Virus record (IMG/VR): IMGVR_UViG_3300018954_000017
Span: 2,216 to 66,215 of that record
Origin: a virus
DNA: 64,000 nucleotides
Direction: 5' to 3' (one strand)
The notes below the pieces were generated by a model. The model worked only from the letters and a program-made list of their open reading frames with translations. It ran no database searches and was not told the DNA's origin. The position numbers were made by a program, and so were the translations under genes. Positions 10,359-48,470 of this stretch are shown in pieces. Position 1 is the stretch's first letter. Every line of letters begins with the position of its first letter.

Positions 10359-11591
10359 TTAGAGTTTTGACCAAGGTATTACTCTAAGGTTCCCACAAGA
10401 CCTTCGGACACAAACACGGGGTTCCTCATCTTTGTCCCCGTCATGCCACAAATAATCTGTCACAAGGTCATCCAGCAACCCTTGAGGCACCTCATCACAC
10501 TCGGCTTCTGCTTTGTAACCCTCAACTATTGGATACAACTTGCCCCGTTCTAACTCTTTCTGAAACCTAGTCAGACTTTTGTGCCAGGAACCCTTCAAAA
10601 GCCCCGCTTCTGACAACCTATGCTTAACTGTTATATAGACCCGACTACATTCAGCAGGATCGGGAGCTATACGGGGCTGCAAGGTAGGTTCAAAGGGTGG
10701 CTCGTCGGATTGGGCGTCCCACGGGTCGGGCGGGTTTTGCGGGGCTTCTAGCGCGGGTTCGGCTGGCGAAATTTGCGCGGCGGAAATCGTATTTAATTGA
10801 CCACACTGATCCATTATCTTTTGCACGGGTATTTCATCTTCTCGTCTTCCGGGTTCACTAACTAGCCCGTGTTCTAGATTCTTTTTCGATGAATCGAAGT
10901 CAGTAAGGCTTGCCTCCGGATTCTCTTCACGAGTCAACTTAGCGTCGGGAGCCGGAGCAGACCCCGTAACCTTAGTGCAGGGGGCTAGCTCCGAGCAACC
11001 AGAGCGAGATATAGACGAAGAATCTTTTTGTAGATCTCGATCAGTCTCATTTAGTCTTATTAAGTCTAGAGGAGAATAAGAACCAGACAGGGAAAGGGTT
11101 TCGCTTTCGATAGCGTGTCTTTCCTGATCGATAGCGTGTCTTTCCTGATCGATAGCGTGTCTTTCCTGATCGATAGCGTGTCTTTCCTGACACGGTATTT
11201 CTTTTGGTTCCAAAGGTTCTGAATTCGACTGTGCATTGGTTTCGCCCTCTTGGGCTTTCCAATAATCCATCTCAGATCCATGCAAGTTCTTGACCATCCA
11301 GTGTTGGATTTTACGTCGATCACGTCCGTAATATTTCGGTTCAAACTCGAATAGTCCTTCATCTTCCAGCACCAGTCTCGCCCTTTTGAAGGAAGTTTCT
11401 TTTAAGTGGGTTTTAAGTGGTTTGAAATTTTCTCCGAACGGATCTGCCAACGATGCCTCAATCCACAATTTGATAACGCACTCGTTCTGCGTCAACAACC
11501 ACTCTCCATCATCTTCCGACATTTTTGCAAAGCGCTTGTTCAATCTTTTTGCTACACTTGACTTACTCATTGTATTAACCTTCAATGACAC
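10359..11591 (-). CDS. Putative replication initiator (lambda O-like layout: N-terminal HTH-like domain, internal iterons)
   Basis: 410 aa; four tandem RHAIDQE repeats in a low-complexity middle; lies between RHH regulators and the SSB/primase cluster; start may be ATG 11570. Confidence 0.6.
   Translation of the reverse strand: MSLKVNTMSKSSVAKRLNKRFAKMSEDDGEWLLTQNECVIKLWIEASLADPFGENFKPLKTHLKETSFKRARLVLEDEGLFEFEPKYYGRDRRKIQHWMVKNLHGSEMDYWKAQEGETNAQSNSEPLEPKEIPCQERHAIDQERHAIDQERHAIDQERHAIESETLSLSGSYSPLDLIRLNETDRDLQKDSSSISRSGCSELAPCTKVTGSAPAPDAKLTREENPEASLTDFDSSKKNLEHGLVSEPGRREDEIPVQKIMDQCGQLNTISAAQISPAEPALEAPQNPPDPWDAQSDEPPFEPTLQPRIAPDPAECSRVYITVKHRLSEAGLLKGSWHKSLTRFQKELERGKLYPIVEGYKAEAECDEVPQGLLDDLVTDYLWHDGDKDEEPRVCVRRSCGNLRVIPWSKL
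11107..11190. repeat. 4 x 21-bp perfect tandem repeat (iteron-like, candidate origin)
   Basis: TCGATAGCGTGTCTTTCCTGA x4 inside the initiator ORF. Confidence 0.95.
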
Positions 11592-11662
11592 TAGATTCGC
11601 CGTCGTCAGCCATTGCAGCTTGCGGCGGCTTTTGCTATGCTTATGATAGCAAAGATACCTAA

Positions 11663-11881
11663 TTGACTGCTATGAATTTTACATTAAGACTCCCTCCCAA
11701 TGAGGAAGCGATCATTAGTCACTATTGTGCGCTAACGGGGCGAACGAAGACTGACGTGATCAGAGAGTTTGTCCGGTCACTAGACCAAAAGAACTGGTTC
11801 CTTGAGGGTAATCAACAGCCTCTATCAGAGCCGCTTAAGCCGCAATCGTGGGACGAGTGGAGCGTTGACAATCTATGGTAA
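11663..11881 (+). CDS. CopG/ribbon-helix-helix regulator
   Basis: MNFTLRLPPNEEAIISHYCALTGRTKTDVIREFVRSL; divergent from the initiator gene. Confidence 0.75.
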   Translation: MTAMNFTLRLPPNEEAIISHYCALTGRTKTDVIREFVRSLDQKNWFLEGNQQPLSEPLKPQSWDEWSVDNLW

Positions 11882-11931
11882 TCGATTACCCGTTTTACCC
11901 AATCACAATGCTTGCAGATTAGGAATAAGTC

Positions 11932-12357
11932 ATGAAACGCACCCCAAACGACCAACCCCGTCGTCCTCGCACAGTCTACCTCACAGACGCCGCCTGGGAA
12001 GCTATAGAGGCAATGGGAGCACGAAAGGGTTACTCTCGGTCTGAAATGATTGAGCAGGCTGTGAGACAGAATGTGGCTATGTATGAGACTTTGCCAGCAG
12101 AAGTTGTTGCTGTCTTACGATCTCCCGAAGGATGGAAATTCACAGACTCTGGAAAGTTAATGGGTGCTTATCGAGGAATACGCATCCTTTTGCATTTTGA
12201 AGATTCTAATTGGGTAGCAAACTTTTTCTCTCCAGGTCACGATATGATTGTTGGTCATTCTTGTGAAGGTGACCTGATTACAAGTGTTGAGTATGTCCAA
12301 GATTATATCGACTCATTCTTGGATGATGACAAACTTCCATTCACCGACGATTTCTAA
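11932..12357 (+). CDS. RHH-domain regulator with C-terminal extension
   Basis: RTVYLTDAAWEAIEAMGARKGYSRSEMIEQAVR. Confidence 0.7.
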   Translation: MKRTPNDQPRRPRTVYLTDAAWEAIEAMGARKGYSRSEMIEQAVRQNVAMYETLPAEVVAVLRSPEGWKFTDSGKLMGAYRGIRILLHFEDSNWVANFFSPGHDMIVGHSCEGDLITSVEYVQDYIDSFLDDDKLPFTDDF

Positions 12358-12378
12358 AACTTAACAAAACATCCCTGC

Positions 12379-12437
12379 AACCTCCACGTTCCTTTCAGTC
12401 ACTGTAGTGAGCGAAGCGAACGTGGAGGTTTTCTTTT
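12379..12437 (+). terminator. Intrinsic terminator
   Basis: 12-bp stem AACCTCCACGTT/AACGTGGAGGTT followed by a T-rich tract. Confidence 0.7.
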
Positions 12438-12530
12438 GCTAGCCATAGTCTGACTATTGTGGGGCGAATGAGGGGGATGAGGCAGGGACTGAGAGGGGTT
12501 CTAGATACTATTTAAAATATTTTTGTTTCA

Positions 12531-12935
12531 AAACCGGACACCTGATCACAAAATCCGGACTGTCCGAAATCTCTACGTATGCGCCTCACTAAATGACACA
12601 TGGTGTACTTGGTGTCCGAATTCACTGTCCGGTTATTAAGCCAGTCCTATTGACTGTCCGAGTTTTACATTTCGCGGATTTTTACTGTCCGAATTCTAAA
12701 AATATGATAGACATCCACCAATTTGCTGTGGATAGCCATCAATATTTATCTGCCAGCGCCCAGTATTTCTAACAACTAATGACTGACTACTGAACACTCT
12801 ATTGCAATCTATTCTCAACAACTACCTTACTAAGTATTTATACCTGTCCGAATTTACTGTCCGGTTAGGTGTCCGGTTTTATCAAGCCTACTTATAGGCA
12901 CATTGTCACTGTCCGAATTTGTTGTCACAAGCAAA
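12531..12935. repeat. Dispersed non-coding element family B, copy 1 (TGTCCG-rich)
   Basis: Nine TGTCCG hexamers; 13-bp inverted repeat 12531-12543/12867-12879; colinear with 49236-49615. Confidence 0.85.
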
Positions 12936-12999
12936 AGTAATTCTTTAGCCTACAAATGCTCGACCAAAGTATTACTAAAGATGACTATAGTTGCCATAG

Positions 13000-13027
13000 A
13001 AAAGCCCTCTAGTTAACTCTAGAGGGC
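13000..13027 (-). terminator. Intrinsic terminator
   Basis: GCCCTCTAG/CTAGAGGGC stem with a T-tract on the minus strand. Confidence 0.7.
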
Positions 13028-13053
13028 GCGTGAGAGGCTTTAGGTAGCTGTTG

Positions 13054-13296
13054 TTAACGGTCGTCGTGTTGCGGGATTGTGAACCAACTGTTAAGCCATT
13101 TACCTAGTGCGGGATCTGCAAGTTTGACTGATTCATAACAATTGCTTGCCAATGAACTTGCAAGTTTTTCACCAAAGATTATGCCAGCCAAATCACAGAG
13201 TCTGGACATTTCCCTTTGGTCTTTAGCGAACACTGCGTCGATGAACTTATCAGTGAATTCATCCTCAGTCATCTCAATCGGTTGAAAGAATCTCAT
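13054..13296 (-). CDS. Hypothetical protein
   Basis: 80 aa followed by a terminator. Confidence 0.6.
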   Translation of the reverse strand: MRFFQPIEMTEDEFTDKFIDAVFAKDQREMSRLCDLAGIIFGEKLASSLASNCYESVKLADPALGKWLNSWFTIPQHDDR

Positions 13297-13593
13297 ACTC
13301 GCTCCAAATCCAACTCATCAATTATCTTACCAATCCTATCTGTCACTTCTTGCAAGATTGCTTCGCATACTAGATACTTCTTAAGTGTTACGAAGTAACC
13401 TTGCATCTCTCGTGCCAATTGCTGCCAACGTTCCGCTCGTGGTTTGACATTTGCTACTCAAGACAGCAGATGTTGCACTACATGAAAGGTTGCTTCGCAA
13501 CACTAAAGATGTTTGTTTAATCTTGCGAAGCAAGTTTGCACCTGAAGCACTACCTGCGGTTAACGGGTTTCTGGGTTTGATTGCGCCTGGAGT

Positions 13594-13974
13594 CTAAAAA
13601 TACTCAAATCCTTTGTTCAACAAAAGTTCTCTTGTGATATCTGGTGTGTGCTGAAGTTCTGCATATAGGGCTTCAGCCTCTTCTGTTTGATCTAGAGTGA
13701 AATCTTTGATGATACCGAGGTCGTCATTGCCCCAAGCTGCAACACGGACGAATGACGACGCGGGATTAGTATGAACGGTGCGACTTATTTTTAACTCCAC
13801 ATACTCTTCACCGTCCCAACTCCACGGTTTGGTGTCATCATAATACGCAGGACGATCTGCATTCATTCCGTACCGCTCATAGAATGTTGTGCCGTCTTCG
13901 TAGTAGTTGCCACACCACTGATCGGAAGTTTTGACGAAACAACTTTTTTGATAGCTTCCTTTTAAATCTAGCAT
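13594..13974 (-). CDS. Hypothetical phage protein
   Basis: 126 aa, GGAGG RBS. Confidence 0.65.
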   Translation of the reverse strand: MLDLKGSYQKSCFVKTSDQWCGNYYEDGTTFYERYGMNADRPAYYDDTKPWSWDGEEYVELKISRTVHTNPASSFVRVAAWGNDDLGIIKDFTLDQTEEAEALYAELQHTPDITRELLLNKGFEYF

Positions 13975-14033
13975 TTCATCCTCCGGTAATCAGTAAAACC
14001 TTTTTTGATAGCAAATGTGACCCTGAGTGAACT

Positions 14034-14294
14034 TTAATCATCTCTCATCCTTTCTAACCTAAATTGAGAAGACTCGTCTTGAGCAATGTAGTCGTCATTG
14101 GTTCGCTTCACAACAGCGATTACTTCGTCGGGCATATGCGGATCATACAGCCAATACTCGTTAGCTGTCAGAGTACCAAAGATTCGCTTTAGATGGCAAT
14201 GGTAGCTTGTGCTGTATCGCTCGCACCCGCTACTTTTGGGTGGCGTTGGATTTAGGTTGGCAAACGGGCAGTTGATTGCTTTACAAATGTTCAT
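14034..14294 (-). CDS. Small Cys/His-rich protein
   Basis: 86 aa with CxxxxC...CxxY...HCH. Confidence 0.6.
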   Translation of the reverse strand: MNICKAINCPFANLNPTPPKSSGCERYSTSYHCHLKRIFGTLTANEYWLYDPHMPDEVIAVVKRTNDDYIAQDESSQFRLERMRDD

Positions 14295-14596
14295 TTTAGT
14301 TCCCTAAATTACTGTCAGTGTGATTAGATTCGACCTCCACTATCATGTCATGAGCTAGCTGTTGATCCCAATAGAATCTCGCGTACCAAGGTTGCTTCGC
14401 AACACTTAACTTGTTTAATTGGTGACCGAAGTGAACTTGCATAGACCGAGAGAACCAACGGAGTAGATGGAACCAAGTTTAGTCATTCGAGTCGTTTGGT
14501 GGGTATCTACTAGTAATTTTACATTAAGCGAATGCGTGTGTCTACAGTATCCTAGACTCCCCTGGCAAGCTAACGTAGAGCTAAAGTCCACTTACA

Positions 14597-15472
14597 GTGA
14601 GTAAAACGAACGTGCCACCAAAGCCAGAGGAATATCGGTACATTCAGGGAAAATTTGGGAACGGAAAGATTCCGATGTGTGGGTGTAAGCGGGTCAAATG
14701 CCGCGATTGTGGGCGTCGGTTCCCGAAAGAAGAACACGAGCTAGACGATTGCCCCGATTGTGGGAAGGAACGATATTGTACGAATGCAAGAATCAAAGAT
14801 CCAAATAATCCTGGCAAGTGGTTACCTTGCTCGATCCACGGGGGAAAATCTTTTAAGTCTAGAGGAGCTGCTCATCCAAATTACAAGGATGGTAAATATA
14901 GCCGCCATATGCCTGCTAGACTCCTTGAAGCTTACGATCAATCTCGCAATGACCCAGACATTCTCTCACTTAACGAAGACATCTCACTCACGGAAGCTAG
15001 AGTTGCTGACGTACTCCAACGGGTAGACACCGCTGAGTCTGGCGCGATGTGGGATGAGTTGAGTAAGTTGGGGAAGGAGATTAAACTTGCTCGTAAGTCG
15101 GGCGATCCTGGTCTAGTCGAGGATCTGTTTGACGAGATGTTGAAGTTGATTGCTAAGGGTAAGGGCGATCGCGAGAACTGGCGGGAGATTGGCGACCTAC
15201 TCGAACGTAAGCGAAAACTCTCTGAGAGCCAGCTCAAGCTACTTGTGACGAAGCAAGAGTTCATTAGCCGACAACAGGCAGTCGTCCTCGTCAGTCATCT
15301 CGTAGAGGTCGTTAAGACTCATGTGACAGACTCTAACACCAAGAGGCGCATCATGGGCGGCATTAGTCAGCTAATGAACTTGCAAGAGGGACAGTCAATC
15401 TCAGAGATACCTGGATTGACCAGTTTTCAGGAGAAGAAGGTTGAAGTGGAAGAGTTTGATGACGACGATTAG
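14597..15472 (+). CDS. terS: Terminase small subunit-like protein (HGGxS motif, N-terminal Cys-rich domain)
   Basis: CSIHGGKS...G..HPNYKDGKYS followed by LSLNEDISLTEARV helices, a pattern typical of HGGxSTG-type TerS; lies far from the head module. Confidence 0.6.
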   Translation: MSKTNVPPKPEEYRYIQGKFGNGKIPMCGCKRVKCRDCGRRFPKEEHELDDCPDCGKERYCTNARIKDPNNPGKWLPCSIHGGKSFKSRGAAHPNYKDGKYSRHMPARLLEAYDQSRNDPDILSLNEDISLTEARVADVLQRVDTAESGAMWDELSKLGKEIKLARKSGDPGLVEDLFDEMLKLIAKGKGDRENWREIGDLLERKRKLSESQLKLLVTKQEFISRQQAVVLVSHLVEVVKTHVTDSNTKRRIMGGISQLMNLQEGQSISEIPGLTSFQEKKVEVEEFDDDD

Positions 15473-15762
15473 AGTGAAGCTAGGTAGCCTCTCAAAGCTT
15501 TTACTGCGCCTTGCAAGCTATCCCATTGAGTCAATTCTTCAGAATTCTCGTTATTTGTAGCTTCGGTGTAAAGTCCACCACTAATATCACCAAAGAGTTG
15601 CATATATACAATGGTTTTGCTTTTCATGTTAATTTGTTTGAGCAGTTCGCGCATTTGCCAAAGTTGCTCAAGCTCAAACCTTTCGGAATCGGATAGATTG
15701 TCTAACATCGTTGTATCCTTTATAGTTTTGCAGTAGATGCGCCCAAGTTTGCTATTGGTCAC
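15469..15762 (-). CDS. Hypothetical protein (paralogue of 15752 and 20704)
   Basis: Shares QLW...LFxDxSG...W..L..A...L..YL pattern; start may be ATG 15708. Confidence 0.55.
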   Translation of the reverse strand: MTNSKLGRIYCKTIKDTTMLDNLSDSERFELEQLWQMRELLKQINMKSKTIVYMQLFGDISGGLYTEATNNENSEELTQWDSLQGAVKALRGYLASL

Positions 15763-15961
15763 CTAAGTATTGCTTAAGCCTTTCGATGGCGTCGTCAAGA
15801 TTGCCCCAATCAACCAGCAAGGCGTAATTATCACCAATTAGAGAACCTGAACCATCTTCAAATAGAGTGATTTCAGGATAACTCATGCTGCACTGATTTT
15901 TAATTTGACAAAATAGTCGCCAGATTTGCACTAACTTCTCTTCATTCGCTGTCAGATTCAT
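15752..15961 (-). CDS. Hypothetical protein (paralogue family)
   Basis: 69 aa, KLVQIWRLF...LFEDGSG...W.NLDDAIERLKQYL. Confidence 0.6.
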   Translation of the reverse strand: MNLTANEEKLVQIWRLFCQIKNQCSMSYPEITLFEDGSGSLIGDNYALLVDWGNLDDAIERLKQYLGDQ

Positions 15962-16367
15962 GAGCCAGCTCCTCCTGTAATTTATCCATTTGTGGTTTCA
16001 ACGCCTCATGAACTTCTTCAGTCAACCCTAGCGCATCACAAGCTGACATTAGCTGACCGGGGGTGAAATCTCCTTGGTGACTACGGTAGTCACCGAAGAT
16101 GCTCTTGAGCTTATGGTAAGCTGTGGTTGCTACAGTATCTTCGTATAAGTCGCGGTCTGAGAGGTGGATACGGTACGATGCACCGTAACAGGTATCATGT
16201 AATAGATCTTCAAGTCGAAACCGTACATCTCGTGGAACTTCGGAAACCTCAAAATACTTGCGACCAACTGTGGTAACAGTGACCCATTGACACCGTTTAA
16301 CTCCTGCACCTTCAAACCGTAAATTGAGTCTCTCTAAGATAACTCTCTGACCAACTTCAAGTTTCAT
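15942..16367 (-). CDS. Hypothetical phage protein
   Basis: ATG 16367 directly follows the stop of the small peptide gene. Confidence 0.65.
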   Translation of the reverse strand: MKLEVGQRVILERLNLRFEGAGVKRCQWVTVTTVGRKYFEVSEVPRDVRFRLEDLLHDTCYGASYRIHLSDRDLYEDTVATTAYHKLKSIFGDYRSHQGDFTPGQLMSACDALGLTEEVHEALKPQMDKLQEELAHESDSE

Positions 16368-16368
16368 C

Positions 16369-16497
16369 TTACTCTCTCCCACATCCAGGTACGGGTGATT
16401 CAGTTCTTTGTGAGCATTCGTCGCTATTGTCAGCTATTGCGGACGGAATGACGGTCACCGCTATTAGGGCTAGTAAAGCTAGGCAAATAGTTTTCAT
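16369..16497 (-). CDS. 42-aa secreted peptide (signal peptide + 20-aa mature part), absent from the ORF track
   Basis: Hand translation MKTICLALLALIAVTVIPSAIADNSDECSQRTESPVPGCGRE; ATGA overlap upstream, next ATG 1 nt after the stop. Confidence 0.7.
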   Translation of the reverse strand: MKTICLALLALIAVTVIPSAIADNSDECSQRTESPVPGCGRE

Positions 16498-16625: not shown

Positions 16626-16676
16626 GTTACTTGCTCTGAAGGTTAGCGGTAGATGCTCCTGTAATCTATAGCCAGT

Positions 16677-18107: not shown

Positions 18108-18142
18108 TGTGTTGCACCCTGCAAAAAACTGTTTTCCCTAGT

Positions 18143-20128: not shown

Positions 20129-20131
20129 TCG

Positions 20132-21721: not shown

Positions 21722-21851
21722 TGTTTTTCTTATGTGTCGTAAATTCAGTGGTCACCAGCGGTTACCTTATGTTAACATGGGAGAAGCAGCTAGGTCAAGT
21801 CTGCGATGTCTAACCCTAGCTGCCCGTAACATCCACAATACCCATTCTATC

Positions 21852-22613
21852 ATGAGTAATCTTTCTGTCACATTGCCTGAGTCTACAATTGTTGGATTTC
21901 TGGAGTCTGAATACGAGTGTGCAGTTGATATTGAGTTGTTAGTAGGCATTGGTGTCTACAGCAGAAAAGACCATGCAGTTCGAGCATTGAAGAAAAACTT
22001 TGAAGAAGGTATTGACTTCTCCTCTTCAAAGGGGAGAGCAAGCCAGCAGGGAGTTTCAGCTACCTGTTACTTCTTAACCTCAGACTGCTTCAAGCAGATG
22101 TGTATGATGGCTGAAACAGAATTCGGTCGTGCAGTCCGCAAATACTACCTCGAAGTCGAACGTCGCTGGAAAGAGTCTCGCAAGACTTCTCAAGCACCCT
22201 ATCATTGGCAAAGGTTACAAACGTTCAGCGAGAAAACCGGACGGTTACCTGCGGGATACTTTTGCATCTTCCAAGAGATAACGCCATTGGTCAGAGATCT
22301 GGAGTCTTTAGGCTATCACCTCCCAGAGAATGCAATCATCGACTCTAGTATCGGCAAACGCTTCTGTGAACATTTGCGGAACGAATGCCAGATAGATCCG
22401 GATGTAGTGTGTAGAACTTACAAACATTGGTATCCAGGGCGGCGTTGGTCAGTAGATGCAAACCTGTATCCACTCAATCTCATCGGAGTTTTCCGGGAGT
22501 GGTTGGAATACCAGTACTATCACGAGTATCTCATTCCCTACTTCAAGGGTCGTCGTGACCCCAAAGCCCTCCAAGCCGCCTCTAGATTCCTCGGCTTACT
22601 TCCGTCACAATAG
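21852..22613 (+). CDS. Antirepressor-like N-terminal domain fused to a BstA-like C-terminal domain
   Basis: N: YSRKDHAVRALKKNFEEGIDF...YFLTSDCFKQMCMMAETEFGRAVRKYY; C: LPAGYFCIFQEI...DSSIG...YKHWYP...YP...GVFREWL; ATG 21852 preferred over the tracked 21732. Confidence 0.7.
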   Translation: MSNLSVTLPESTIVGFLESEYECAVDIELLVGIGVYSRKDHAVRALKKNFEEGIDFSSSKGRASQQGVSATCYFLTSDCFKQMCMMAETEFGRAVRKYYLEVERRWKESRKTSQAPYHWQRLQTFSEKTGRLPAGYFCIFQEITPLVRDLESLGYHLPENAIIDSSIGKRFCEHLRNECQIDPDVVCRTYKHWYPGRRWSVDANLYPLNLIGVFREWLEYQYYHEYLIPYFKGRRDPKALQAASRFLGLLPSQ

Positions 22614-23334: not shown

Positions 23335-23769
23335 GCGTTTCCTCGCTCAACTTCCCCAATTGTAGCTCTAGCGTCACTCTGGCGTCAAACACGGTAAGTG
23401 GGGAATCTCGATTTACTGTAAATCTGGACTTCGACCGTACCTCTTTACCGTGAGAACCGTACCGTAGCAATCTAAAATCGTTGATGTGTAAGGATTTGAG
23501 GTTGTTTTTAGTCAAACTTTCCCACAATGTCGTATAGCTGTGAATCGCTCTAATGCCTACTATAGCGGCGTTTGAGACGATAAATCTGAATGATTTCGGT
23601 GATTTTAGGGCGAAAATTGCGATAGTTCTCTTTTGTATGAACCAATAAGCCAGAACGTAGACTGGGCGGTTATCTTAGCGAATTACTTGACAAACAGAAA
23701 ATCTGTGTTACCCTTAAGAATCTATATTTTATTATTCTTATAATTAAGTTAATTAACTAAGAATCCTCC

Positions 23770-24153
23770 GTTAATTCTTTTATTCGTTCCTCATAAAAGA
23801 ATTAACTACGGTGCGCTAATCGCGCAAGCTGGACGGTCAGGAGGATGATTGAGAAAGAATACGGATTGCTCACGCCTATACGACCAATCTAAGGGGTATT
23901 CGCTGCGCTCATGGGCAAAGCCTGACCTGACTTACCATCATCGTCTTAAAGATCTCGAATACGGGCTGGTCTGTTAACTCGGAAGACAGATACTTAAACT
24001 TCCCGTGCAGAAGATGCTGGATCGGTGTAGATCTTTTAAATACGATTTCGTCCCCGCTAAAATCGCCAAGAAGCTGCCCCAAATTCCGCGAACGTCCAAT
24101 CCTACCCGCGACCCCCTAAACCCGCCCTCCTGCCCCGTACAGCCGCCTCTGAG
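23770..24153 (+). repeat. Dispersed non-coding element family A, copy 1
   Basis: 23830-24153 aligns to 32730-33050, including a 58-nt block with one mismatch; preceded by hairpins and an AT-rich tract. Confidence 0.9.
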
Positions 24154-24302
24154 CTAACCCACACGCAACCCATCCACCCTACCTAACAGAGCTAGCCGCC
24201 CAACTAACGCAAAATCGTTGTTTGACCAGTTCGTCCCGAATATGACAAAGCCCTCGAAGGCGATAGGTGCTTTCGAGGGCTGTAGGAGGCTATTGGGTGA
24301 CT

Positions 24303-32020: not shown

Positions 32021-32404
32021 TTGCGGATTGAACTGCAACAACAATCCGCAATAATCCAAGTAATTATGGTGAATATTACGATTATGCCAGAAAACAAAAG
32101 GTACGCAAAGATGCACAGAACAATTTCTTTAGAAGACTTGAGATGGCTAAAGACACAAGAGCCTTGCGTAAAAGAATTATGGATTGACTGTGTAATAGCG
32201 GAGGGATTCGGAGACAGATTTGTTGATGTTGAGACAGACTTGAGCGAAAAGTCATTCCGCAAAGCGAAGAAAGCCCTTGAGTCACGGTTCTTTGAATTTC
32301 AGGCAAATCTAGAACTGAGTGCCGCTGGAAGAGGGGTGATTACAGGATGGAAAGTTCGGAACGTCCACGGTACACGCAACAGGAAATACTGGTCTGAAGA
32401 ATAG
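32021..32404 (+). CDS. Stand-alone paralogue of the initiator N-terminal domain
   Basis: NKRYAKM...WLKTQEPCVKELWI...FGDRF...LSEKSFRKAK...FFEF...WKVRNVHG...YW aligns to aa ~18-113 of 10359..11591; real start probably ATG 32085. Confidence 0.8.
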   Translation: MRIELQQQSAIIQVIMVNITIMPENKRYAKMHRTISLEDLRWLKTQEPCVKELWIDCVIAEGFGDRFVDVETDLSEKSFRKAKKALESRFFEFQANLELSAAGRGVITGWKVRNVHGTRNRKYWSEE

Positions 32405-32427: not shown

Positions 32428-32453
32428 AAGCAGGCTTTCGGGTCTGCTTTTTT
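32428..32453 (+). terminator. Intrinsic terminator
   Basis: AAGCAGGC-TTTCGG-GTCTGCTT followed by TTTT. Confidence 0.75.
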
Positions 32454-32476: not shown

Positions 32477-33050
32477 ATTTACTGTAAATCGGGAAAGCCA
32501 ATCTACTGTAAATTGAGCCATGGGAACTCAGCCGATTTCACGGGAAGCAAAAAAGTTCTCATGGTAAAAGATTCCAGAGGAGAGAGCCGGAATTCTTTAA
32601 CAGTAAGCATTTTCGCGGCTCTCATGACTTATTCATGATCTAATACATGATCTAAGATCTATCACTCCGGTTATTTACTACTCACTTCGTTCGTTGTAAA
32701 TAACCTCCGTGACGCAACAAGTTGCGAGTTGGACAGTCAGGAGGATGATTGAGAAAGAAAGAATTGCTCACGCCTCTACGACCAATCTAAAGGGTGTTCG
32801 CTGCGCTCACGGGCAAAGCCTGACCTGACTTACCATCATCGTCTTACAGATCTAGAACACGGGCTAGTCACTACGAACGAAGATGAACACTTAAACTTCC
32901 CGTGCAGAAGATGCTGGATAGGTGTAGATCTTTTAAATACGATTTCGCCCCCACTAAAATCGCCAAGAAGCCGCCCCGAATTTCGCGAACGTCCAATCCT
33001 ACCCGCGACCCACTAAACCCGCCTTGCTGCCCCGTACAGCCACTCCTGAG
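32477..33050 (+). repeat. Dispersed non-coding element family A, copy 2
   Basis: Palindrome pair 32477/32501, GATC-rich AT tract, two hairpins, conserved core, C-rich tail. Confidence 0.9.
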
Positions 33051-33167
33051 AGAACGCGCACCCTGCCTATCTACCTCGACTTACATGTGCAACTTCTAGA
33101 CTAACGATTTTGCGTCAATCTAGCCTCGTGCTACAATGATGATTAAGAATTCGACAGAGGAGTGCAA

Positions 33168-35167: not shown

Positions 35168-35808
35168 GTGGCATTCTCCCTTTTCTGGAAATAGTACTGT
35201 CTCACATACTCTTCCAAATCTTTTTTCAGCACGGATATATCTGGTCGTTGGATTACCTTTGCAATCTCATCTAGTTTGCTTGCCTGCTTTTGCTCTCCAA
35301 GACCATAGTAGTGATGCAGTAGAGTGACTATGTCGCGCTGTTCTTTGTCAACGAGTCGAGCCGCATCTTTCCCCATTAACACAAACTTATTCATCAATTG
35401 CTGCTGAAGAAAATCAACAAACTCAACTGTCTGCAAAACAATTTCGGACGGTAGTTCCTTTTGCCGCTTTAGTGCGAGCACTTGTCTGGCGGCAGGACAG
35501 CTTTCGTTGCCACAGTATTGATGTCTTTCAGCCTTTAAGTTGCTTCCCCAAAACTTTACTTGGTTATTACAAACACCATGTAGTTCTGGATCGTAGATGT
35601 TACCAGAGCAACGACAGTACCAAGTGCTATGCGCTTGCTGGTTTCCGGCATCGCCAACTACTGTGAGAGCGCCAAAGGTTTGTCCTACAAGATTGTCTCG
35701 CTTGGGTTGTCCGCGTCTAGACAGATTAATGCGACGTTCCTGCTCTAAGATAATGTCGGCAAGAACGTCTTTATCGAGTAGTAGTAGTTCGTCTTTAGAA
35801 TACCCCAT
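35164..35808 (-). CDS. Protein with a homing-endonuclease-associated Cys domain but no visible nuclease domain
   Basis: DNLVGQTFGALTVVG...WYCRC...NLK...YCG. Confidence 0.6.
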   Translation of the reverse strand: MGYSKDELLLLDKDVLADIILEQERRINLSRRGQPKRDNLVGQTFGALTVVGDAGNQQAHSTWYCRCSGNIYDPELHGVCNNQVKFWGSNLKAERHQYCGNESCPAARQVLALKRQKELPSEIVLQTVEFVDFLQQQLMNKFVLMGKDAARLVDKEQRDIVTLLHHYYGLGEQKQASKLDEIAKVIQRPDISVLKKDLEEYVRQYYFQKRENAT

Positions 35809-41689: not shown

Positions 41690-41690
41690 A

Positions 41691-42353
41691 TTAGACCCCC
41701 AAAAGAATACTGGCAGCTTGTATGAAATCAAACAGCGGTTTGGGTGGGACTAAAGCTAGATCTTGTACTTCAATAGTTGATTGCTGTTCCGCAAACTCTT
41801 CGTCACTATCGAATCTAACTCTTGCATTCCGACCCGCTCGTGCAAAGTCAACAATTGCCAAGTGATTGTACCTAATGTTACGCTGTCGCTTATCGTAAGT
41901 GAGCTGCTCACCTTCATCATTAGTCCAGGTGCCCGACTCATCTGTTACGTCGCAATCGTAGCCACAGGATAACTCTCGCATACCTTTAGCTATTACAGCG
42001 TCGATACCGTCCTTCTTTTGAAGGTTGAGTTTGACACGAATGTACGGGTTGACCAATGCATCAATATCATCCCCTACAACTCCAACTCCGTATTGATTAA
42101 AATTGCCAGGAGTCACCCGCACTGGAGGGTGTTTGACAGTAAGCGGAACTCCAGCCAGTGTGTGGAGTGAGTCTTCGTTCAGCACATCTTCTGGGTGCCG
42201 AAGTTCACGAATGATTTTACCAGAGGTGCGATCGCGATACTCGAAGACGCCGACTCTAGTAGCAATACCATCGAGCCGAAGGTGACCTTGGTGAGCTTTA
42301 AAGGGCTTATGTAGCGATTGAATAATTGTGCCGTTGTCAAATCTAAATGTCAT
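41691..42353 (-). CDS. DUF2213 capsid maturation protease
   Basis: GIATRVGVFEY, P.T..HPP, RELSCGY, QRNIRYNHLAIV..ARAG..AR...D. Confidence 0.9.
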   Translation of the reverse strand: MTFRFDNGTIIQSLHKPFKAHQGHLRLDGIATRVGVFEYRDRTSGKIIRELRHPEDVLNEDSLHTLAGVPLTVKHPPVRVTPGNFNQYGVGVVGDDIDALVNPYIRVKLNLQKKDGIDAVIAKGMRELSCGYDCDVTDESGTWTNDEGEQLTYDKRQRNIRYNHLAIVDFARAGRNARVRFDSDEEFAEQQSTIEVQDLALVPPKPLFDFIQAASILLGV

Positions 42354-42356
42354 TGA

Positions 42357-42548
42357 TTATACAGTGCCTAATAGTAAACGAGATGCAAATGCTAGAGTTG
42401 GTTGAGGGAAACTTAAAGTACGTCGTTCGATTTCATCTTCTGAAAGATCTGAAGCGTATAAATCAAGAATCTTATTTACATCGTCAAAACTGATATTCTT
42501 TTCAGCACACATTTTTTTTACGATTTCTGTACTTGTCAGTTTGCTCAT
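42357..42548 (-). CDS. Small protein, paralogue of 48524..48718
   Basis: DV..ILDLY.S..EDEI..R....P.P..A...L.L shared with 48524. Confidence 0.65.
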   Translation of the reverse strand: MSKLTSTEIVKKMCAEKNISFDDVNKILDLYASDLSEDEIERRTLSFPQPTLAFASRLLLGTV

Positions 42549-43372
42549 GTTTTCTTTTGTTTTCTATAGTTTTCTGCGGTTTGCCTGTACTCACTTGCAG
42601 CTTCTTCGGCTTCTTCTTCGGTGATACGTAAATCGAATTCTTCTTCTCTAACCCTTTTCATGTCAGGTTCAAGCTTTCCGTTTTTCACGACTGCATATTG
42701 ATACCCCCCAGCCTCCCCACCAGAAGGTCTGCTGAATTTTGCTATTCTTTCGTAAGCGTATGCTCTGACTGCACCATATTCATCGCTGTCATCGGTATAT
42801 GCAGAGGTTTGATACTGTTCTCCATCTTCTCTACGGGAAGCATCATATTGAAGTATCTTGGCAATTTTGATGGAGATACGATTACTTTCTTCTGAACTGA
42901 TCTTGTCATCTTTGTCAAAACTGTCGTTAATGCTAAAATCAACAACTTTAGATTTGCCGTCACCTACGGGTAATATACTGACATCTAGTTTGTTGTTCTC
43001 TTTTGTAGTGTGACTGTATGCAAAACCACCACGACCCAGATCTGTTTCTTCAACATCTTTTAATTTGGGCTTAGATTCCTCTAGTTTGACTTTGTTTGCT
43101 TCCTCTTCAAGTTTTCGGGCGTGTGCTCGACCAATTGCACTATTAGGATCAAATAGCTGCTCAGATCCATTGCGGTTCTCGGCACCACTTTCAACCCACC
43201 TGCCGTCCCCACCTCGACTTTGGTTTGGATTGTACCCAGATCTCCGAGCACTTGATGAAGAGGGCGATGCACTAGATCCACCACTCTCTCCAGACGATCT
43301 ACTTCGTGTGGTGTCAGTTTTAAATTGATCAAATAGTATTGATGCGCTAGTCAATAAATCATTCATGTACAT
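42545..43372 (-). CDS. Head-module protein with an NPxQSR motif and an uncharacterised C-terminal domain
   Basis: Ser/Gly linker, YNPNQSRGGDGRW, then a globular domain (VDFSIN...RAYAYER). Confidence 0.75.
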   Translation of the reverse strand: MYMNDLLTSASILFDQFKTDTTRSRSSGESGGSSASPSSSSARRSGYNPNQSRGGDGRWVESGAENRNGSEQLFDPNSAIGRAHARKLEEEANKVKLEESKPKLKDVEETDLGRGGFAYSHTTKENNKLDVSILPVGDGKSKVVDFSINDSFDKDDKISSEESNRISIKIAKILQYDASRREDGEQYQTSAYTDDSDEYGAVRAYAYERIAKFSRPSGGEAGGYQYAVVKNGKLEPDMKRVREEEFDLRITEEEAEEAASEYRQTAENYRKQKKT

Positions 43373-43411
43373 ATCTGACTGTTAATGCTAAACTAGCAAC
43401 AGAAAGTACTT

Positions 43412-43717
43412 TTGATTTACGTAAAACACCATAGTTTACTAGAGTTACATATGTTCGTAGATATAATTGACAATGTGATAACAACAACATTGGGTGAGCA
43501 AGTCGAGGAAGTGTCTATGGGATTGCTGTTAAATGTGAACGGGCAGGAGCAAGGCATTCCTGTTCGGGAACTAACTGACATTTACCTAGACAACGAAGAT
43601 ATAAGTCAAGCGACTAAGTTGTATGTTACTTACCAAGATCAGGAATACGAATTCAAAGTACCTGAACAGGATACGGCTGACTGGCAGTATTTAGAACATT
43701 TAATCGAATTAGAATAG
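43412..43717 (+). CDS. Small acidic protein convergent with and abutting the portal gene
   Basis: Strongly D/E-rich; stop at 43717 abuts the portal stop at 43718; start may be ATG 43451. Confidence 0.7.
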   Translation: MIYVKHHSLLELHMFVDIIDNVITTTLGEQVEEVSMGLLLNVNGQEQGIPVRELTDIYLDNEDISQATKLYVTYQDQEYEFKVPEQDTADWQYLEHLIELE

Positions 43718-46700
43718 TTATTCTAGAGTTTTCCTTAAGTCCTTCAGATAATCTGAATACTTTGTAGCTTTCCCATGTGCTTGTTCCCAGAGTTCTTTAG
43801 CTTTCTCTGGACTCAAATTACCGTCACGTATACGTCTATTGATTTCATTTGCAGCAACAAAACTATAGCGGCGATAGTATTCTCTCCAAAAGGTTGGTCT
43901 AAAAGTTTGATTAAACCAATCACGTCCACCATCGCCATCTTTAGGAATACCAAAACGTTTCATGTCACCTGTGTCAGGATGAATACCTTTCGGATGGTTT
44001 GCTCCATATAACGGAGAAGGTGCGGCATGAACTCCTTCTGCTAAAATAACTAATCGTCTGTCGGCTTTATTCTCTAGACTGATTGCGTAACCATTAATTT
44101 TGTTCGCGGGATCTGGTTGCAATAGATTCCTCATGCCATCTTTAGCCTGCTGTAGTGTCATTGCTCCAGACTTTAACCCATCATTAATCTCATCAAATCT
44201 GGCTTTGCTCCATTGGTGAACATGATGGATCTGCATTTTGCCATAGTCTCCGGGTCTATTGCCGGATCTGACTAAATCTTTATCTACTTTTCCGTGGAAT
44301 GTCGGTTTCCAGTCGGGCACGGTTGGTTGATTGCTTTTGTCTTCAACTAAACTCATTGTTGTAACAAGTCCACCAAACACTTGTTCATTTGTCATTTCTC
44401 GAAGTTTAGGGTAGTAGCTAGGAACTCCATCAACTCGTTCTCCCAGAATCTCTATACCATTCTTATGTTGATTTAGAGTCAGCTCTTTCCCTTCATGCTC
44501 AATTCTGTATTCAAAGTTTTTATTAGTCTTAAATTTAAAACTTGCTTCAAACTTTTTGTCTTCTGAATTTTGCCAAATTTCTACTTTACCGTCAACGCTG
44601 ATTTCAAAGCTGTCACTCTTGACAACCTTTCGCAACGTTGGTAATCGTTTGCGTTTAATAGCGTTTTCAACTGTAGCTTCGGCTTTCTTTTGTATCTTTT
44701 GGTTTACAGCCGGATCTATGACAGGATCAATAGGTTTGGGTGGTTCCGGTGGTAACTGCAATTCTGGTTTCGGAGGTTCCACAACAGGTTTCCCTGGTTG
44801 GCGTTTGCTCCCTTTAGCAAGCTTATATTTATAGATTTTTTCGAGTTTAGCTTGAGCAGTCTTTTCAGGATAAGGATCTGAGTTTGTTTGGTCTAGCTCC
44901 TGTTGTGCCCTTTTGCGACTGATCCCAACATCGCGCCAACGTCCAAACCTGTCTCGTGGTTGAAGTGGATTAAATTTACTTTTGCTTTTAGCAGTAGGTG
45001 TAGAAGCGACCGTACTTGAGCTGGACTCTGGTGCGGTTTCTAGTTTTTTTTTACCAATGCGGTCTTGACGAAATTCTACCTCATCCCGACGATATCGGTA
45101 ATGTCGCAACTCTTCCGGGGTTAAGTCATTCACCAACCCCATGAACTCTGGGGGCATATGTTGCAAATACAGATCAATTGCAGCTTTTGCATCGTCGCAA
45201 CCCAAGATTATTTTTGTTTCATCTAGCATCTTGCGTTCAAGCGGGTCATCGGCATTCGCTTTAAGTTGGTAGATTTCAAATATCTTTCCAACTGGCTTTT
45301 CCCCATTGCATAGAGCTTGATGGAATTCTGGGGTGGCATAGAAATCTAGAGGCTCATTATCATGACCTGTATGCTTCTGAATATAGCCATAGACCCCCTG
45401 CATTCTTCGGTTATGACGGACATCTCCTGGCAAGTATTCAATAGCTAGCGTTCGATCGCCCCAACGTAACTTCTGCTTGGCAGCAGCATCTCTGCGTTCA
45501 TAAGAGTCAGTCCTTCGATTCTCCGCCATTCGATCGCGATCACTTTCTTGAGCCAACATTTCGGCATTGTTGCCGCCATCGCCGCCTGTGTCTGCTATAG
45601 CTGCTTGCCCCATTTTGGTTCCGACATCAACGCCTGTTTGAGCTGCACCAGACTTCGCACCCATGTTCTCGCCAGTTGGAGCGGCTGTCGGTTTGCCTGC
45701 AAGTACGGGCAATAAGAATTCTGGGTCATCTTTCTTACTCCACAGAGTTTTATCAATTGCGGGATCAAGTACAGTTTCCATTGAGTAATCTGGGGAACCA
45801 AAGCGGTTCTTGCGTATCTCAAGGGGATGAAGTACTCCAATCATTCGATAGACTTGATCTGTGCGAGCTTGAGTTTGCCTGAGTTTTGCTTCAGTTTCAA
45901 GGTCAAGCCTTAGTGACGAACGAGTGCTTAAGCGCCAACCTTCCGGGATTTTACCTTTAGTTATCCCTTTCTTACTAATTAGACACAGCCGAGCAAGAAC
46001 TTTAGTTGGTTTAAGCCAATTATGGCGCTGAAAGCTTTCCAGGGCGTCAGCGTAGTCATATTTCTCTGATTGACCACTAGTGTTACCTTGGCTGCCTTCG
46101 CCCCAAAGTTTTGTATGGGGAATACCAGACTCTGCTGTCAGTAGCGCCTTTAGTCGGTCAACAATGTCCCCTACGCCCCCATAATTACGTTGAACAAATC
46201 CGGCGTCTTCAGTTTCCGCATCCATAGCCAAACCTTTGTTGTAGCTCATGCCCATTTGGATAGCCAAGAAGCGACGAATAATTTGATCGGATTGTCCTTT
46301 GAGAATTAAGTCAGCAAGACCTTTGAGTTTGTAGGTGAATACGCTGTAGTCTTGAATCATCCCAGAGCTAGCCATGACACCCTGCATATAGCTGCCAAAA
46401 GCTACCAAAATAGATTGAAGTACGCTAAGGTCTTCCCCGTGGTTCTCATGTAGCATCCAGCCATATAGCTTGCGTCCCGAAAATTTGAGAACGCGAGACT
46501 TGTGAATTCGCATTTGGTTCAAGGGAATCTTTTGTTCATCCTTGAGCCGTTTGTTAAGCTCCCACAAGCCAATAAGGTCGTAGTATTCCGGTTCCACTAA
46601 AGAGTAACCACCCAGCTCTGTGCCCCATACGGATGGTCGCAACTCATACGAAGAAAGAACTTTTAGCTCTACGATCTCTTCCAGATTCTCTTCGTCTAAT

Positions 46701-47086
46701 GGCTCATCTGCTTTACGTCCATCATTAGCGAAGATGACAATGTATGCGTTCCGATGCAAGCGAGCGAGCACTGAAGCTTCCACCAGTTTTTCGTGGAGAC
46801 TCAATTTGTCTTCCAAATAGTTGGTAATTTCTTGAGGGGCTGTGGTATCTTTGCCGAGATTGAGAGAGTACCATTCAACCGGAGAATCTTCGGGTAGTAG
46901 CGCTACTATTTTTTGAACAAGCCCGGAAGTCTTGAAGAGGGCGGAACACTCTTCCCTGCTAATGTTGGCAGCTTGTAAGTTGACTTCAAAGTTCAGGCTT
47001 TTATCTCGAAGAGTCCCCGCGCCTGTACTCATGTTGTACAAGCCAGCATATGCGTCCAGTAGCGCCCCGTCTTCTCTATAACTCAT
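43718..47086 (-). CDS. Portal protein (DUF1073-like) fused to an InPase domain and an LHH-like HNH/EndoVII nuclease domain
   Basis: aa ~1-450 portal (IHKSRVLKF, QDYSVFTYKLKGL, GIPHTKLWG, GQSE..DY); aa ~536-662 InPase (IEY.PG..R...M...YGYI...G.D..PLD, DE.KIILG); aa 705-717 FNPLQPRDRFGRW; C-terminal QIHHVHQ...LAEGVH...NH...R.WF...R..FW. Confidence 0.85.
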   Translation of the reverse strand: MSYREDGALLDAYAGLYNMSTGAGTLRDKSLNFEVNLQAANISREECSALFKTSGLVQKIVALLPEDSPVEWYSLNLGKDTTAPQEITNYLEDKLSLHEKLVEASVLARLHRNAYIVIFANDGRKADEPLDEENLEEIVELKVLSSYELRPSVWGTELGGYSLVEPEYYDLIGLWELNKRLKDEQKIPLNQMRIHKSRVLKFSGRKLYGWMLHENHGEDLSVLQSILVAFGSYMQGVMASSGMIQDYSVFTYKLKGLADLILKGQSDQIIRRFLAIQMGMSYNKGLAMDAETEDAGFVQRNYGGVGDIVDRLKALLTAESGIPHTKLWGEGSQGNTSGQSEKYDYADALESFQRHNWLKPTKVLARLCLISKKGITKGKIPEGWRLSTRSSLRLDLETEAKLRQTQARTDQVYRMIGVLHPLEIRKNRFGSPDYSMETVLDPAIDKTLWSKKDDPEFLLPVLAGKPTAAPTGENMGAKSGAAQTGVDVGTKMGQAAIADTGGDGGNNAEMLAQESDRDRMAENRRTDSYERRDAAAKQKLRWGDRTLAIEYLPGDVRHNRRMQGVYGYIQKHTGHDNEPLDFYATPEFHQALCNGEKPVGKIFEIYQLKANADDPLERKMLDETKIILGCDDAKAAIDLYLQHMPPEFMGLVNDLTPEELRHYRYRRDEVEFRQDRIGKKKLETAPESSSSTVASTPTAKSKSKFNPLQPRDRFGRWRDVGISRKRAQQELDQTNSDPYPEKTAQAKLEKIYKYKLAKGSKRQPGKPVVEPPKPELQLPPEPPKPIDPVIDPAVNQKIQKKAEATVENAIKRKRLPTLRKVVKSDSFEISVDGKVEIWQNSEDKKFEASFKFKTNKNFEYRIEHEGKELTLNQHKNGIEILGERVDGVPSYYPKLREMTNEQVFGGLVTTMSLVEDKSNQPTVPDWKPTFHGKVDKDLVRSGNRPGDYGKMQIHHVHQWSKARFDEINDGLKSGAMTLQQAKDGMRNLLQPDPANKINGYAISLENKADRRLVILAEGVHAAPSPLYGANHPKGIHPDTGDMKRFGIPKDGDGGRDWFNQTFRPTFWREYYRRYSFVAANEINRRIRDGNLSPEKAKELWEQAHGKATKYSDYLKDLRKTLE

Positions 47087-47104
47087 ACTGCTTTAGCGGT
47101 TGTT

Positions 47105-47590
47105 TCATATGACAAATGCTGACATAGCTAATGCTCCACCGCCGCCTTTGCAGCCACAGAGTTCGTTAAGCGCTTCAATTGCTGTGAATCCTGGAGGGAC
47201 AATGAGCGGGGTGCTAAGGTCGAGGCCAAGTTGAAGATTTAGATATGTTTCGATTGGTTTTGCTTGTCCCGTAAACGTGATCCCTTGTTCAGCTTTTGAT
47301 AGTGCCTGAATTTCTAGATTTGTTTGTAACCGTCTAGCTGCCACGTAGTAAGTTCTGTAGGTTATTCCAGCAGCGAAAGCCGCTAACTCATCCTCAGAAT
47401 ACAACGGATTTGCCACCGAACTCATCAGACTTGTTGCTTCAAAAGCCGCCTTGGCTGTCAAGTTAATGCCAGCAGAAACTTGCAACAGATCGCTAATGAA
47501 CTCTACATCTGTTTCTTCGGGTGCATCTGCTAGTACTTGGACTTTGGCTATAGCTTGAGCTAGTGTGAGCGGTTGTGGCATTGGCAACAC
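47105..47590 (-). CDS. Putative head-tail adaptor / head completion protein
   Basis: L.VSAG...YRTYYVAA..LQ...GITFTG pattern; first gene of the head module; start may be ATG 47581. Confidence 0.55.
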   Translation of the reverse strand: MLPMPQPLTLAQAIAKVQVLADAPEETDVEFISDLLQVSAGINLTAKAAFEATSLMSSVANPLYSEDELAAFAAGITYRTYYVAARRLQTNLEIQALSKAEQGITFTGQAKPIETYLNLQLGLDLSTPLIVPPGFTAIEALNELCGCKGGGGALAMSAFVI

Positions 47591-47662
47591 AAGTATATTC
47601 TTACACTCATACTACGGAGACTTGAGTGTTAAAGTGTGTGCGTTCACCCACACTAGATCACT

Positions 47663-48082
47663 ATGGCTTCTTTTACATACGTTAGCAATCGTAAAACTAT
47701 TGAAAAGCAGTTGGATGCCGCATTTGATTCAACTATTGAGTACTACTTCAAAGCACTGAGGGCAGTCATCAATATTAGTCGTGGCTGGTCAGGATTTCAA
47801 AAGAACCCTTTTCGCTCGATCGTGGATACTGGAGAATTCCGTGACTCCCAAGGCAAAGAGAAGCTGGGTCGAATGGCATGGAATATTTTTTGGCTAGCGG
47901 AATACTCGATCTTTATACGCTATGGCGGCACAACCCCGCAGAACGTCTCCTTCCCTGGTCGCAACTTCGAGGAGATCGCCCTCCAGGAAGTCGATTTAAC
48001 CGAATTCTTCATCAAAGCATTTCAAGCCAAAGGTAATCTGAATGTTTCCGGTGTTGTCTTGATGAGCGGTCAGGAGCTATAG
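47663..48082 (+). CDS. HK97 gp10-like neck protein
   Basis: RSIVDTGEFRDS, W.AEYS....YG, PGRNF motifs. Confidence 0.7.
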   Translation: MASFTYVSNRKTIEKQLDAAFDSTIEYYFKALRAVINISRGWSGFQKNPFRSIVDTGEFRDSQGKEKLGRMAWNIFWLAEYSIFIRYGGTTPQNVSFPGRNFEEIALQEVDLTEFFIKAFQAKGNLNVSGVVLMSGQEL

Positions 48083-48139
48083 CCAACAATAGCTTGCACT
48101 AGCAACGTAAGTCCGGTTTCTAGTAAAGAGACAAACCCG

Positions 48140-48470
48140 ATTCACAGTAAATTGGGAAAGCCAATTTACTTATATACATAGATGATCTATTCATATATAA
48201 AATCTAACTATCTCGCGTAAACGCTCGAACACAGATAGCTGATTGAGTATAAGTAAAGAATCAACGGCGACCTTACTCTTGCTCAATGAATTTGGAGATC
48301 TACTTAACGGGCTAGTGATTCCGAACGAAGAAGAGCAGACTTGTACCCGTTCCTAGATGATGGATCTGTGAGGTAATAAAGATAAGCCCCAAAAATCGCC
48401 TGCAACCCGCCGCAGCACCGCAACCACCTCACACTACCTTGACCTACCTCAACACCTGCTCCTGCCCCCC
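48140..48470 (+). repeat. Dispersed non-coding element family A, copy 3 (divergent)
   Basis: Palindrome-like sites 48140/48164; AGATCTA...ACGGGCTAGT...CGAACGAAGA core; AAAATCGCC; C-rich tail. Confidence 0.7.

Follow-up and report, generated by a model that had tools for sequence, protein, structure and literature searches.

A 64-kb stretch of viral DNA, hereafter the window, contains several copies of a structured module of ~350 nt, some of them free and one embedded in a gene. The window comprises bases 2216-66215 of the 104,255-bp IMG/VR record IMGVR_UViG_3300018954_000017; coordinates marked 'genome' refer to the whole record. We give an even chance to the reading that cassettes of a replication-origin type form a family here, with this module as their constant arm. 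The reading is based on the number and layout of the copies, constraint on the nucleic acid, covariation within hairpins, joint variation of iterons and DNA-binding domains, gene conversion between copies, and the presence of the same layout in a relative. From these observations we infer that the cassettes are origins or origin-derived sites, namely secondary origins or sites of fork arrest and restart like SPP1 oriR. Two other contigs are used throughout: G001 (IMGVR_UViG_3300018954_000006, 38.7 kb) and G003 (IMGVR_UViG_3300035686_000003, complete, 147.7 kb). Names with L (L008, L009, L010, L17, L19, L025 and L026), together with B08 and B10, denote copies or records from relatives.

Searches with BLAST and an nhmmer profile of the family identified ten copies of the module, eight in the record and two on G001 (Table 1). 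Three are coding (A, B and X1c) and lie in the linkers of paralogous genes, and seven are free and non-coding. Six of the free copies are intergenic in the record (E, F, G, H, D and C), and the seventh, X1nc, is found on G001 along with the coding copy X1c. An earlier, sequence-only reading of this DNA had described four copies, with the sense strand of a supposed initiator gene colinear with three non-coding stretches. The colinearity is borne out and those four copies are real, but the number was under-counted. When the window was compared with itself by BLAST, 32724-33075 matched 23824-24178 with 86.5% identity over 355 nt (E 7e-117), and copies F and G gave 74-74.5% identity (E 2e-15 and 1e-11) to minus-strand positions 10764-10911. 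Copy H, from which the 5' third of the module is missing, lies below BLAST detection and was recovered at 48259-48459 by the family profile (nhmmer E 1e-35). An exact 18-mer reported at 10861-10878 (reverse complement) and 32851-32868 is present in both places. The free copies contain no open frame on either strand, with 3-15 stops of all three kinds in every frame, in keeping with the frame-breaking indels and stops first described. A small open reading frame (ORF) on either strand of these copies is ruled out by the stops, and recoding of a stop codon is rejected because TAA, TAG and TGA are mixed.

The same order of parts is seen in every copy, as the sequence-only reading had proposed: tandem repeats of a protein-binding type, an AT-rich tract, the module, and a C-rich, G-poor tail with CCAATCCNAC. 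Genes with a coding copy consist of an N-terminal winged-helix domain (N-domain), in-gene iterons, the AT-rich tract, the module, and a C-terminal domain (C-domain). Helix I of the module is a hairpin of ~60 nt with the fixed loop CACTAAGGTT; it is replaced by other hairpins in F and G, and is absent in H. The module also contains the box CTGACYTGACTTACCATCATCG and helix II, for which the order is AGATCT, CACGGG ... CCCGTG and AGATG, then GGATC...TAAATACGATTTCG. An insert of 57 nt with two TTGCTCAC repeats is present in the free copies E, C, D and X1nc, and absent from the coding copies. The AT-rich tracts and C-rich tails reported earlier are real features: G + C content is 22-33% in the tracts (30-33% at 11020-11079 compared with ~47% locally, and 22-28% at 48140-48219) and 55-70% in the tails, where there is a strong excess of C on the sense strand. 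A claimed richness in GATC amounts to a weak effect only, with 5.7 sites per kb in the modules and 3.4 per kb genome-wide. The repeats of the free copies are iterons with a 24-bp period and the palindrome ATTTAC-T-GTAAAT, and the same sites occur after the stop codons of A and X1c. The motif CTAACTATCTCGC, located upstream of copy H, is common to copies C and D and to the relative G003. A G-quadruplex or i-motif in the tail was seen by eye in copy F alone and hence is not conserved.

Judged from the aligned copies, the conserved entity is the nucleic acid and not the protein, because the module has no codon-position bias, the free copies have no open frames, and the hairpins covary; the sequence-only reading had proposed the same. 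For the codon test, seven coding copies were aligned by codon. Third positions differ most in the N-domain (0.60 vs 0.34) and in the C-domain (0.41 vs 0.19-0.28). Within the module the three codon positions are near equal (0.03-0.15), with no bias across ~120 codons, and in its core non-synonymous codon changes exceed synonymous ones (0.23 vs 0.04).

The hairpins provide the structural part of this evidence. In helix II, 93% of cells are paired, compared with 35-50% in slid controls; in three pairs, found in copies H, D and L19, both partners have changed, and the observed values were reached by 0-1 of 500 shuffles. For helix I, in which the pairing of one subfamily is slipped relative to the other, column-wise covariation was replaced by folding energies and chimeras with swapped arms. 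Its folding energy is -24 to -32 kcal/mol, with z of -3 to -4.5 relative to shuffles. The arms have several differences between the coding and free subfamilies with complementarity kept, and arm-swap chimeras lose up to 10 kcal/mol. Structural covariation, which the sequence-only reading had left to be looked for, is therefore found in the form of compensatory changes in two hairpins, by shuffles and chimeras, although in few independent events. As a separate observation, in L025 and L026 the helix I region begins, within the codons for RSGRSESAP, with 18 nt (CGCTCTGGTYGYTCGGAG) whose synonymous positions are identical; the N-domains of these genes are only ~45% identical, and the inner stem is rebuilt as two short hairpins.

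The binding-site half of the cassette varies together with the protein that would recognize it. In-gene repeats are four 21-bp units in A, with other sets in B, in B08/B10 and in X1c, and the type of N-domain matches the type of in-gene iteron in 8/8 homologues. C-domain types are recombined, as in L17, where the N-domain is of B type and the C-domain of A type, and the reshuffled domains meet at the module as a conserved joint. Exchange also occurs on a finer scale. Over 1.2 kb, gene A differs from its orthologue on a JGI contig at 20 columns only, all in a single patch of the module core, and at 14-15 of these 20 the orthologue carries the state of other copies, including the free copy F. 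This comparison indicates that the copies exchange patches by gene conversion.

Such exchange invites two other explanations of the family. One is that the free copies are functionless relics of duplicated initiator genes, kept similar by gene conversion from the intact genes. Parts of the coding frame survive in them, interrupted by just 1-2 stops in ~85 codons, copy G retains an N-domain ORF upstream, and the 97%-identical orthologue differs from A only in the patch that matches other copies. Identity among the free copies C, D and X1nc is, however, very uneven: it is 95-100% in the iterons and AT-rich tract, 97% in helix I and 59-84% in the core, and falls to 38-61% in the tail. The low value in the tail is what relics might be expected to give, but neutral relics would not show the profile as a whole. 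Furthermore, the free copies have a complementary helix I sequence of their own and an insert exclusive to them, the combination of in-gene and free copies persists in a relative in which the module is beyond BLAST detection, and ~3 kb of junk is rarely kept in phage genomes. We consider decay of this kind very unlikely.

The other explanation is that the module is a homology cassette or mobile repeat, providing a crossover point at which DNA-binding and iteron modules are swapped against C-domains, and by which copies are spread. The domain types reshuffled across the module in L17 fit this, as do the homology between the record and L008, whose limit coincides exactly with the module edge, the breaks of the assembly at copies of the module, and the non-homologous DnaD-like N-domain that is found on the same chassis in G003. 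Recombination is nevertheless expected at any long repeat and is possibly a consequence and not the function; the copies have no linked transposase, integrase or homing nuclease, and the fixed-loop hairpins would be left unexplained. Little probability is attached to it here. A diversity-generating retroelement was set aside on inspection of the alignment, where the differences include indels and all base types.

Reading the cassettes as origins or their derivatives gains from the genomic context. Copy A lies in an operon with two SSB genes, and gene A diverges from a ribbon-helix-helix gene. Copy D is upstream of, in order, a BstA/AntA-like gene, a gene for a protein of 387 amino acids, and DnaB; the 387-amino-acid protein has a weak match to an O-like PHROG (E 6e-4) and is 43% identical to P0166 of G003. 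The complete relative G003 has four winged-helix paralogues and a dispersed repeat family of its own, with three in-gene and three free copies. Two of the in-gene copies are in linkers of winged-helix genes and one is in P0166, a protein of 455 amino acids whose gene neighbours a large ORF and DnaB. Comparison of P0166 with PHROG gave matches to 'DnaD-like helicase loader' at E 4e-26 and to 'replication initiation protein' at E 2e-15, and hhalign showed no homology of its N-domain to the winged-helix family (probability 0.4%). Its gene contains four iterons with a 22-bp period, GACCGGATCAAATTG, and the same iterons are present three times at each of the three free G003 copies, all of which have in-frame stops. 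One of these free copies follows the tape-measure gene, which is the neighbourhood of coding copy B here. No link between the G003 family and this module was found by BLAST or with the module profile; the two have short motifs in common, CTAACTATCTCGC and TTGCTCACGC. Because G003 has the same layout with a diverged module, the layout has persisted while the sequence diverged. The earlier suggestion of origin-like cassettes thus agrees with a replication context (the SSB operon, the O-like gene with DnaB, and the DnaD-like initiator of G003), but the 410-amino-acid protein of copy A matches no replication family in Pfam or PHROG.

In the mechanism that we propose, the variable specificity half of the cassette would come first, with tandem sites for a DNA-binding protein and then an AT-rich unwinding tract. 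The constant half would follow over ~350 nt, with helix I and its loop, the second stem CACGGG/CCCGTG, the boxes and the C-rich tail. In three copies the cassette would lie inside the gene of its own iteron-binding protein, with the module read through as a disordered linker. In the other seven the coding frame would have been lost, leaving the cassette alone behind 24-bp iterons for a trans-acting phage protein; candidate binders are the paralogue with only an N-domain that adjoins copy G, and the O-like protein encoded next to DnaB. Once the DNA is unwound or transcribed, the hairpins may act as helicase-loading or priming signals, so that the constant arm could be a helicase-loading signal, a priming signal or a transcript. 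An extended version of this proposal is a multi-site replication network, in which ~10 cassettes would share one constant hairpin module behind four swappable pairs of binding site and DNA-binding domain, the module being an undescribed single-strand (DNA or RNA) helicase-loading or priming signal that overrides the protein code. We put this forward only tentatively, as possible but rather doubtful.

Several of the same features would suit the main rival of the origin reading, a cassette made of a promoter and a structured leader or non-coding RNA, where the repeats are operators, the AT-rich tract is the promoter, and the module is transcribed. Its hairpins might then work at the RNA level, for instance in antitermination, processing or stability, or form a leader that binds protein where transcription units begin. 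Each copy has the same orientation as the gene downstream of it, and most stand at the heads of gene clusters. In copy B a near-consensus promoter, TTGAAA-17-TATAAT, is found inside the ORF, 26 nt before the module. The G-T pairs of helix I are confined to the sense strand, and conserved loops with covarying stems are typical of RNA. The wobble pairs of helix II (3 vs 5 cells), on the other hand, favour neither strand. The module has no Rfam match: a scan of both strands of the window with Rfam 15 at the gathering score gave 0 matches. A promoter before every copy is not universal, as no promoter-like site precedes the module in A, B08, B10 and L19. In copies G, H and D, -10-like elements of their own come after the module, and the downstream gene therefore need not use the module as a leader. 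The covariation of in-gene iterons with the DNA-binding domain, and the DnaD-like initiator of G003, would also be left unexplained. A leader RNA by itself is unlikely on this evidence, although it is not exclusive of an origin, since the two are compatible if origins are activated by transcription.

A number of observations count against the cassettes being origins. Ten origins in ~143 kb would be many. The most conserved stretch of the free copies, the operator pair and TAAAAT region that is 95-100% identical in C, D and X1nc, resembles an operator with a -10 element pointing into the module, and the orientation of the copies relative to genes fits an RNA leader equally well. All the sequences come from one narrow phage lineage, which leaves few independent events behind the covariation; similarity among copies is inflated by gene conversion, which by itself can keep them alike. 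The sequence-only reading had called the gene with copy A an initiator, which the searches do not uphold: Pfam and PHROG comparisons of the 410-amino-acid protein and its paralogues gave no family and no replication-family match, and the protein has no sequence or profile homology to Phage_rep_O, replisome organiser or DnaD-like families in these databases. A structure search with the N-domain returned generic winged-helix matches (ORC/Cdc6, TFE, Fur and MarR, Z 5-6.7), with DnaD-N weak, and Foldseek gave nothing below E 0.1. Finally, the iterons of A, B and X1c are found only in their own genes, and the free copies share none with the full-length paralogues. The free copies are therefore not decoys for those proteins, contrary to an earlier suggestion.

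The N-domain was modelled as a winged helix with a predicted local distance difference test (pLDDT) score of 81; the model of the C-domain, with pLDDT 66, was too low for searching. A profile search collected 198 cluster representatives of the N-domain family, unannotated and located on Nostocales plasmids and phage-like contigs, including plasmids of Nostoc, Trichormus and Calothrix (e.g. NC_010631.1 at 282184-283665). In several members, repeats with a 21-bp period are translated directly after the domain, such as ESHFVTA x4 and GNELPPI x5. Family members occur in up to 9 places per plasmid, all annotated as hypothetical, and the multi-copy habit may extend to host plasmids as well. ORFs with only the N-domain (109-113 amino acids) are also found directly upstream of a full-length paralogue in L008 at 2986-3315 (-), in L010 at 9545-9874 (+), and in L009 at 1730-2071 (+).

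Table 1. Copies of the module and features associated with them (window positions unless marked 'genome').
Feature	Position	Strand	Description
Copy E	genome 1-391		Free
Copy A	10681-11038	minus	Coding, inside 410-aa ORF; translated as disordered linker; nhmmer
Copy F	23748-24178	plus	Free, non-coding
Copy G	32649-33075	plus	Free, non-coding
Copy H	48259-48470	plus	Free, partial, without helix I
Copy B	genome 67699-68032		Coding, inside 393-aa paralogue
Copy D	genome 90271-90645	minus	Free
Copy C	genome 101395-101760		Free
410-aa ORF (gene with copy A)	10359-11591	minus	First gene of leftward operon with two SSB genes
SSB genes in copy A operon	8115-8456 and 7629-8069		
Iterons of copy A	11107-11190	minus	Four tandem 21-bp units GGAAAGACACGCTATCGATCA, translated ERHAIDQ x4; unique to gene A
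AT-rich tract of copy A	11020-11079	minus	Between iterons and module A
Module A landmarks	helix I 10942-11006; helix II 10816-10879; TAAATACGATTT 10784-10795; CCAATCCGAC 10704-10713	minus	CCAATCCGAC in C-rich tail
Palindrome pair	10324-10358	minus	ATTTAC-N-GTAAAT type, as before free copies; directly after stop of 410-aa gene
Copy F, 5' part	from 23768		Replaced by own AT-rich 17-bp hairpin and short GC hairpin
Copy F landmarks	helix II 23952-24015; TAAATACGATTT 24037-24048; CCAATCCTAC 24096-24105	plus	
Perfect palindrome ATTTACTGTAAAT	23411-23423		~340 nt upstream of copy F
127-aa ORF	32021-32404	plus	Directly upstream of copy G; winged-helix N-domain only; identity to paralogue B 47% (E 2e-23)
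Terminator-like hairpin	32428-32449		After 127-aa ORF
Two iterons, 24-bp period	32477-32513	plus	ATTTAC-T-GTAAAT; upstream of copy G
Copy G landmarks	helix II 32850-32912; TAAATACGATTT 32934-32945; CCAATCCTAC 32993-33002	plus	
-10-like element TGCTACAAT	33129-33137	plus	After copy G
Iterons and AT-rich tract upstream of copy H	48117-48219	plus	24-bp iterons (palindrome 48140-48152)
Copy H helix II	48298-48358	plus	Compensatory A-T pair; C-rich tail
-10-like element TGCTACAAT	48493-48501		After copy H, before tail-gene operon

The record encodes a portal, a major capsid protein, an HNH nuclease, a tape-measure-like ORF of 3563 amino acids and two SSBs, as well as DnaB, Ro60 and an RNA ligase. 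G001 has almost nothing in common with it beyond the repeats. The reverse complement of G001 overlaps the right end of the record by 146 nt with 99% identity, and G001 terminates within the upstream part of a module copy, where the left end of the record (copy E) starts. Most likely, to judge from these ends, the record and G001 form a single circular map of ~143 kb that was split by the assembler at repeat copies, which is consistent with the length of G003.

Across the whole genome, HIP1 (GCGATCGC) is 13-fold enriched (12 observed vs 0.9 expected), GGCC is avoided (2 vs 237 expected), and GGATCC is absent (0 vs 19 expected). The scarcity of GGCC and GGATCC points to restriction-site avoidance and HIP1 to a cyanobacterial host. 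Together with the occurrence of the winged-helix family on plasmids of Nostoc, Trichormus and Calothrix, these signals make it likely that the virus is a Nostocales cyanophage. No close relative was found among 50,697 deposited phage records, with the capsid protein at most 30% identical to any, and neither blastn with the module nor tblastn with the N-domain matched any of these records. Metagenome contigs and 185,579 species genomes, scanned by pattern, gave 0 hits to the module or the protein, and in an IMG/VR search close relatives alone carried them. A tRNA scan of the window found none.

Some further features of the same DNA were recorded. Paralogous proteins encoded at window 21732-22613 (+) and genome 89197-90063 (-) match BstA abortive-infection/antirepressor PHROGs (E 1e-24 and 8e-28); one of these BstA-type genes is directly downstream of module D, and the other is ~1.1 kb upstream of module F. 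Between copy F and convergent minus-strand genes there is a strong GC hairpin, GCCCTCGAA ... TTCGAGGGC, at window 24243-24280, which could terminate transcription in both directions. Another dispersed family, with units of ~430 nt and unrelated to the module, occupies gene-poor gaps at window 12506-12942 and 49212-49627 and at 35221-35629 of G001, with copies that are 71-78% identical.

Almost nothing is known, as far as we are aware, about origins in large cyanophages or about the proteins that initiate replication of Nostocales plasmids. For both, this locus offers a testable candidate: a defined module acting in cis, and a family of ~200 winged-helix proteins, so far without annotation, whose genes contain iterons. 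It also appears to be a clear natural case in which a nucleic-acid signal dominates a reading frame, and one where a DNA-binding domain and its iterons would be swapped together, and binding specificity with them, while the chassis stays constant, even when the domains are non-homologous. Should the free copies fire or arrest forks, this phage would serve as a viral model of multi-origin control, and its cassettes could be a source of origin parts for Nostoc genetics.

Single-strand initiation and primosome assembly signals, such as the G-site of R1 and ssiA of pAMbeta1, adjoin plasmid origins. The module resembles them in having conserved hairpins shortly downstream of the initiator-binding and unwinding region, which would be used once single-stranded; we know of no sequence likeness between them.

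Closer parallels are found in phages. The origin ori-lambda sits in the middle of gene O (PMC7466680). As in that case, iterons and then an AT-rich tract occur mid-gene for a protein whose N-domain binds them (here, is predicted to bind them), the origin DNA is translated as an inter-domain linker, and the N-domain and iterons vary together with an exchangeable C-terminal half. Unlike lambda O, the proteins here have no Phage_rep_O homology by sequence or profile, a conserved hairpin module of 250-350 nt follows the AT-rich tract, and there are three such genes per genome with seven gene-free copies. In SPP1, oriL lies in gene 38 and a free oriR among the late genes, with oriR regarded as a fork-arrest site by which the mode of replication is switched (PMC6316719, PMC3485210). 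Here too, one copy is in a putative initiator gene and a similarly organised free copy, with repeats in direct orientation plus an AT-rich tract, is among structural genes; G003 matches the SPP1 pattern, as the in-gene iterons of its initiator recur at three free copies. The differences are that SPP1 has two copies with one type of binding site, compared with ten copies and four types here, that the iterons of the free copies differ from those of the full-length genes, and that the common part is a long structured module and not repeats alone. Overall, the cassettes are best read as belonging to a kind already known, that of ori-lambda and SPP1 oriL/oriR, in which the shared structured module, the copy number and the swappable specificities would be new.

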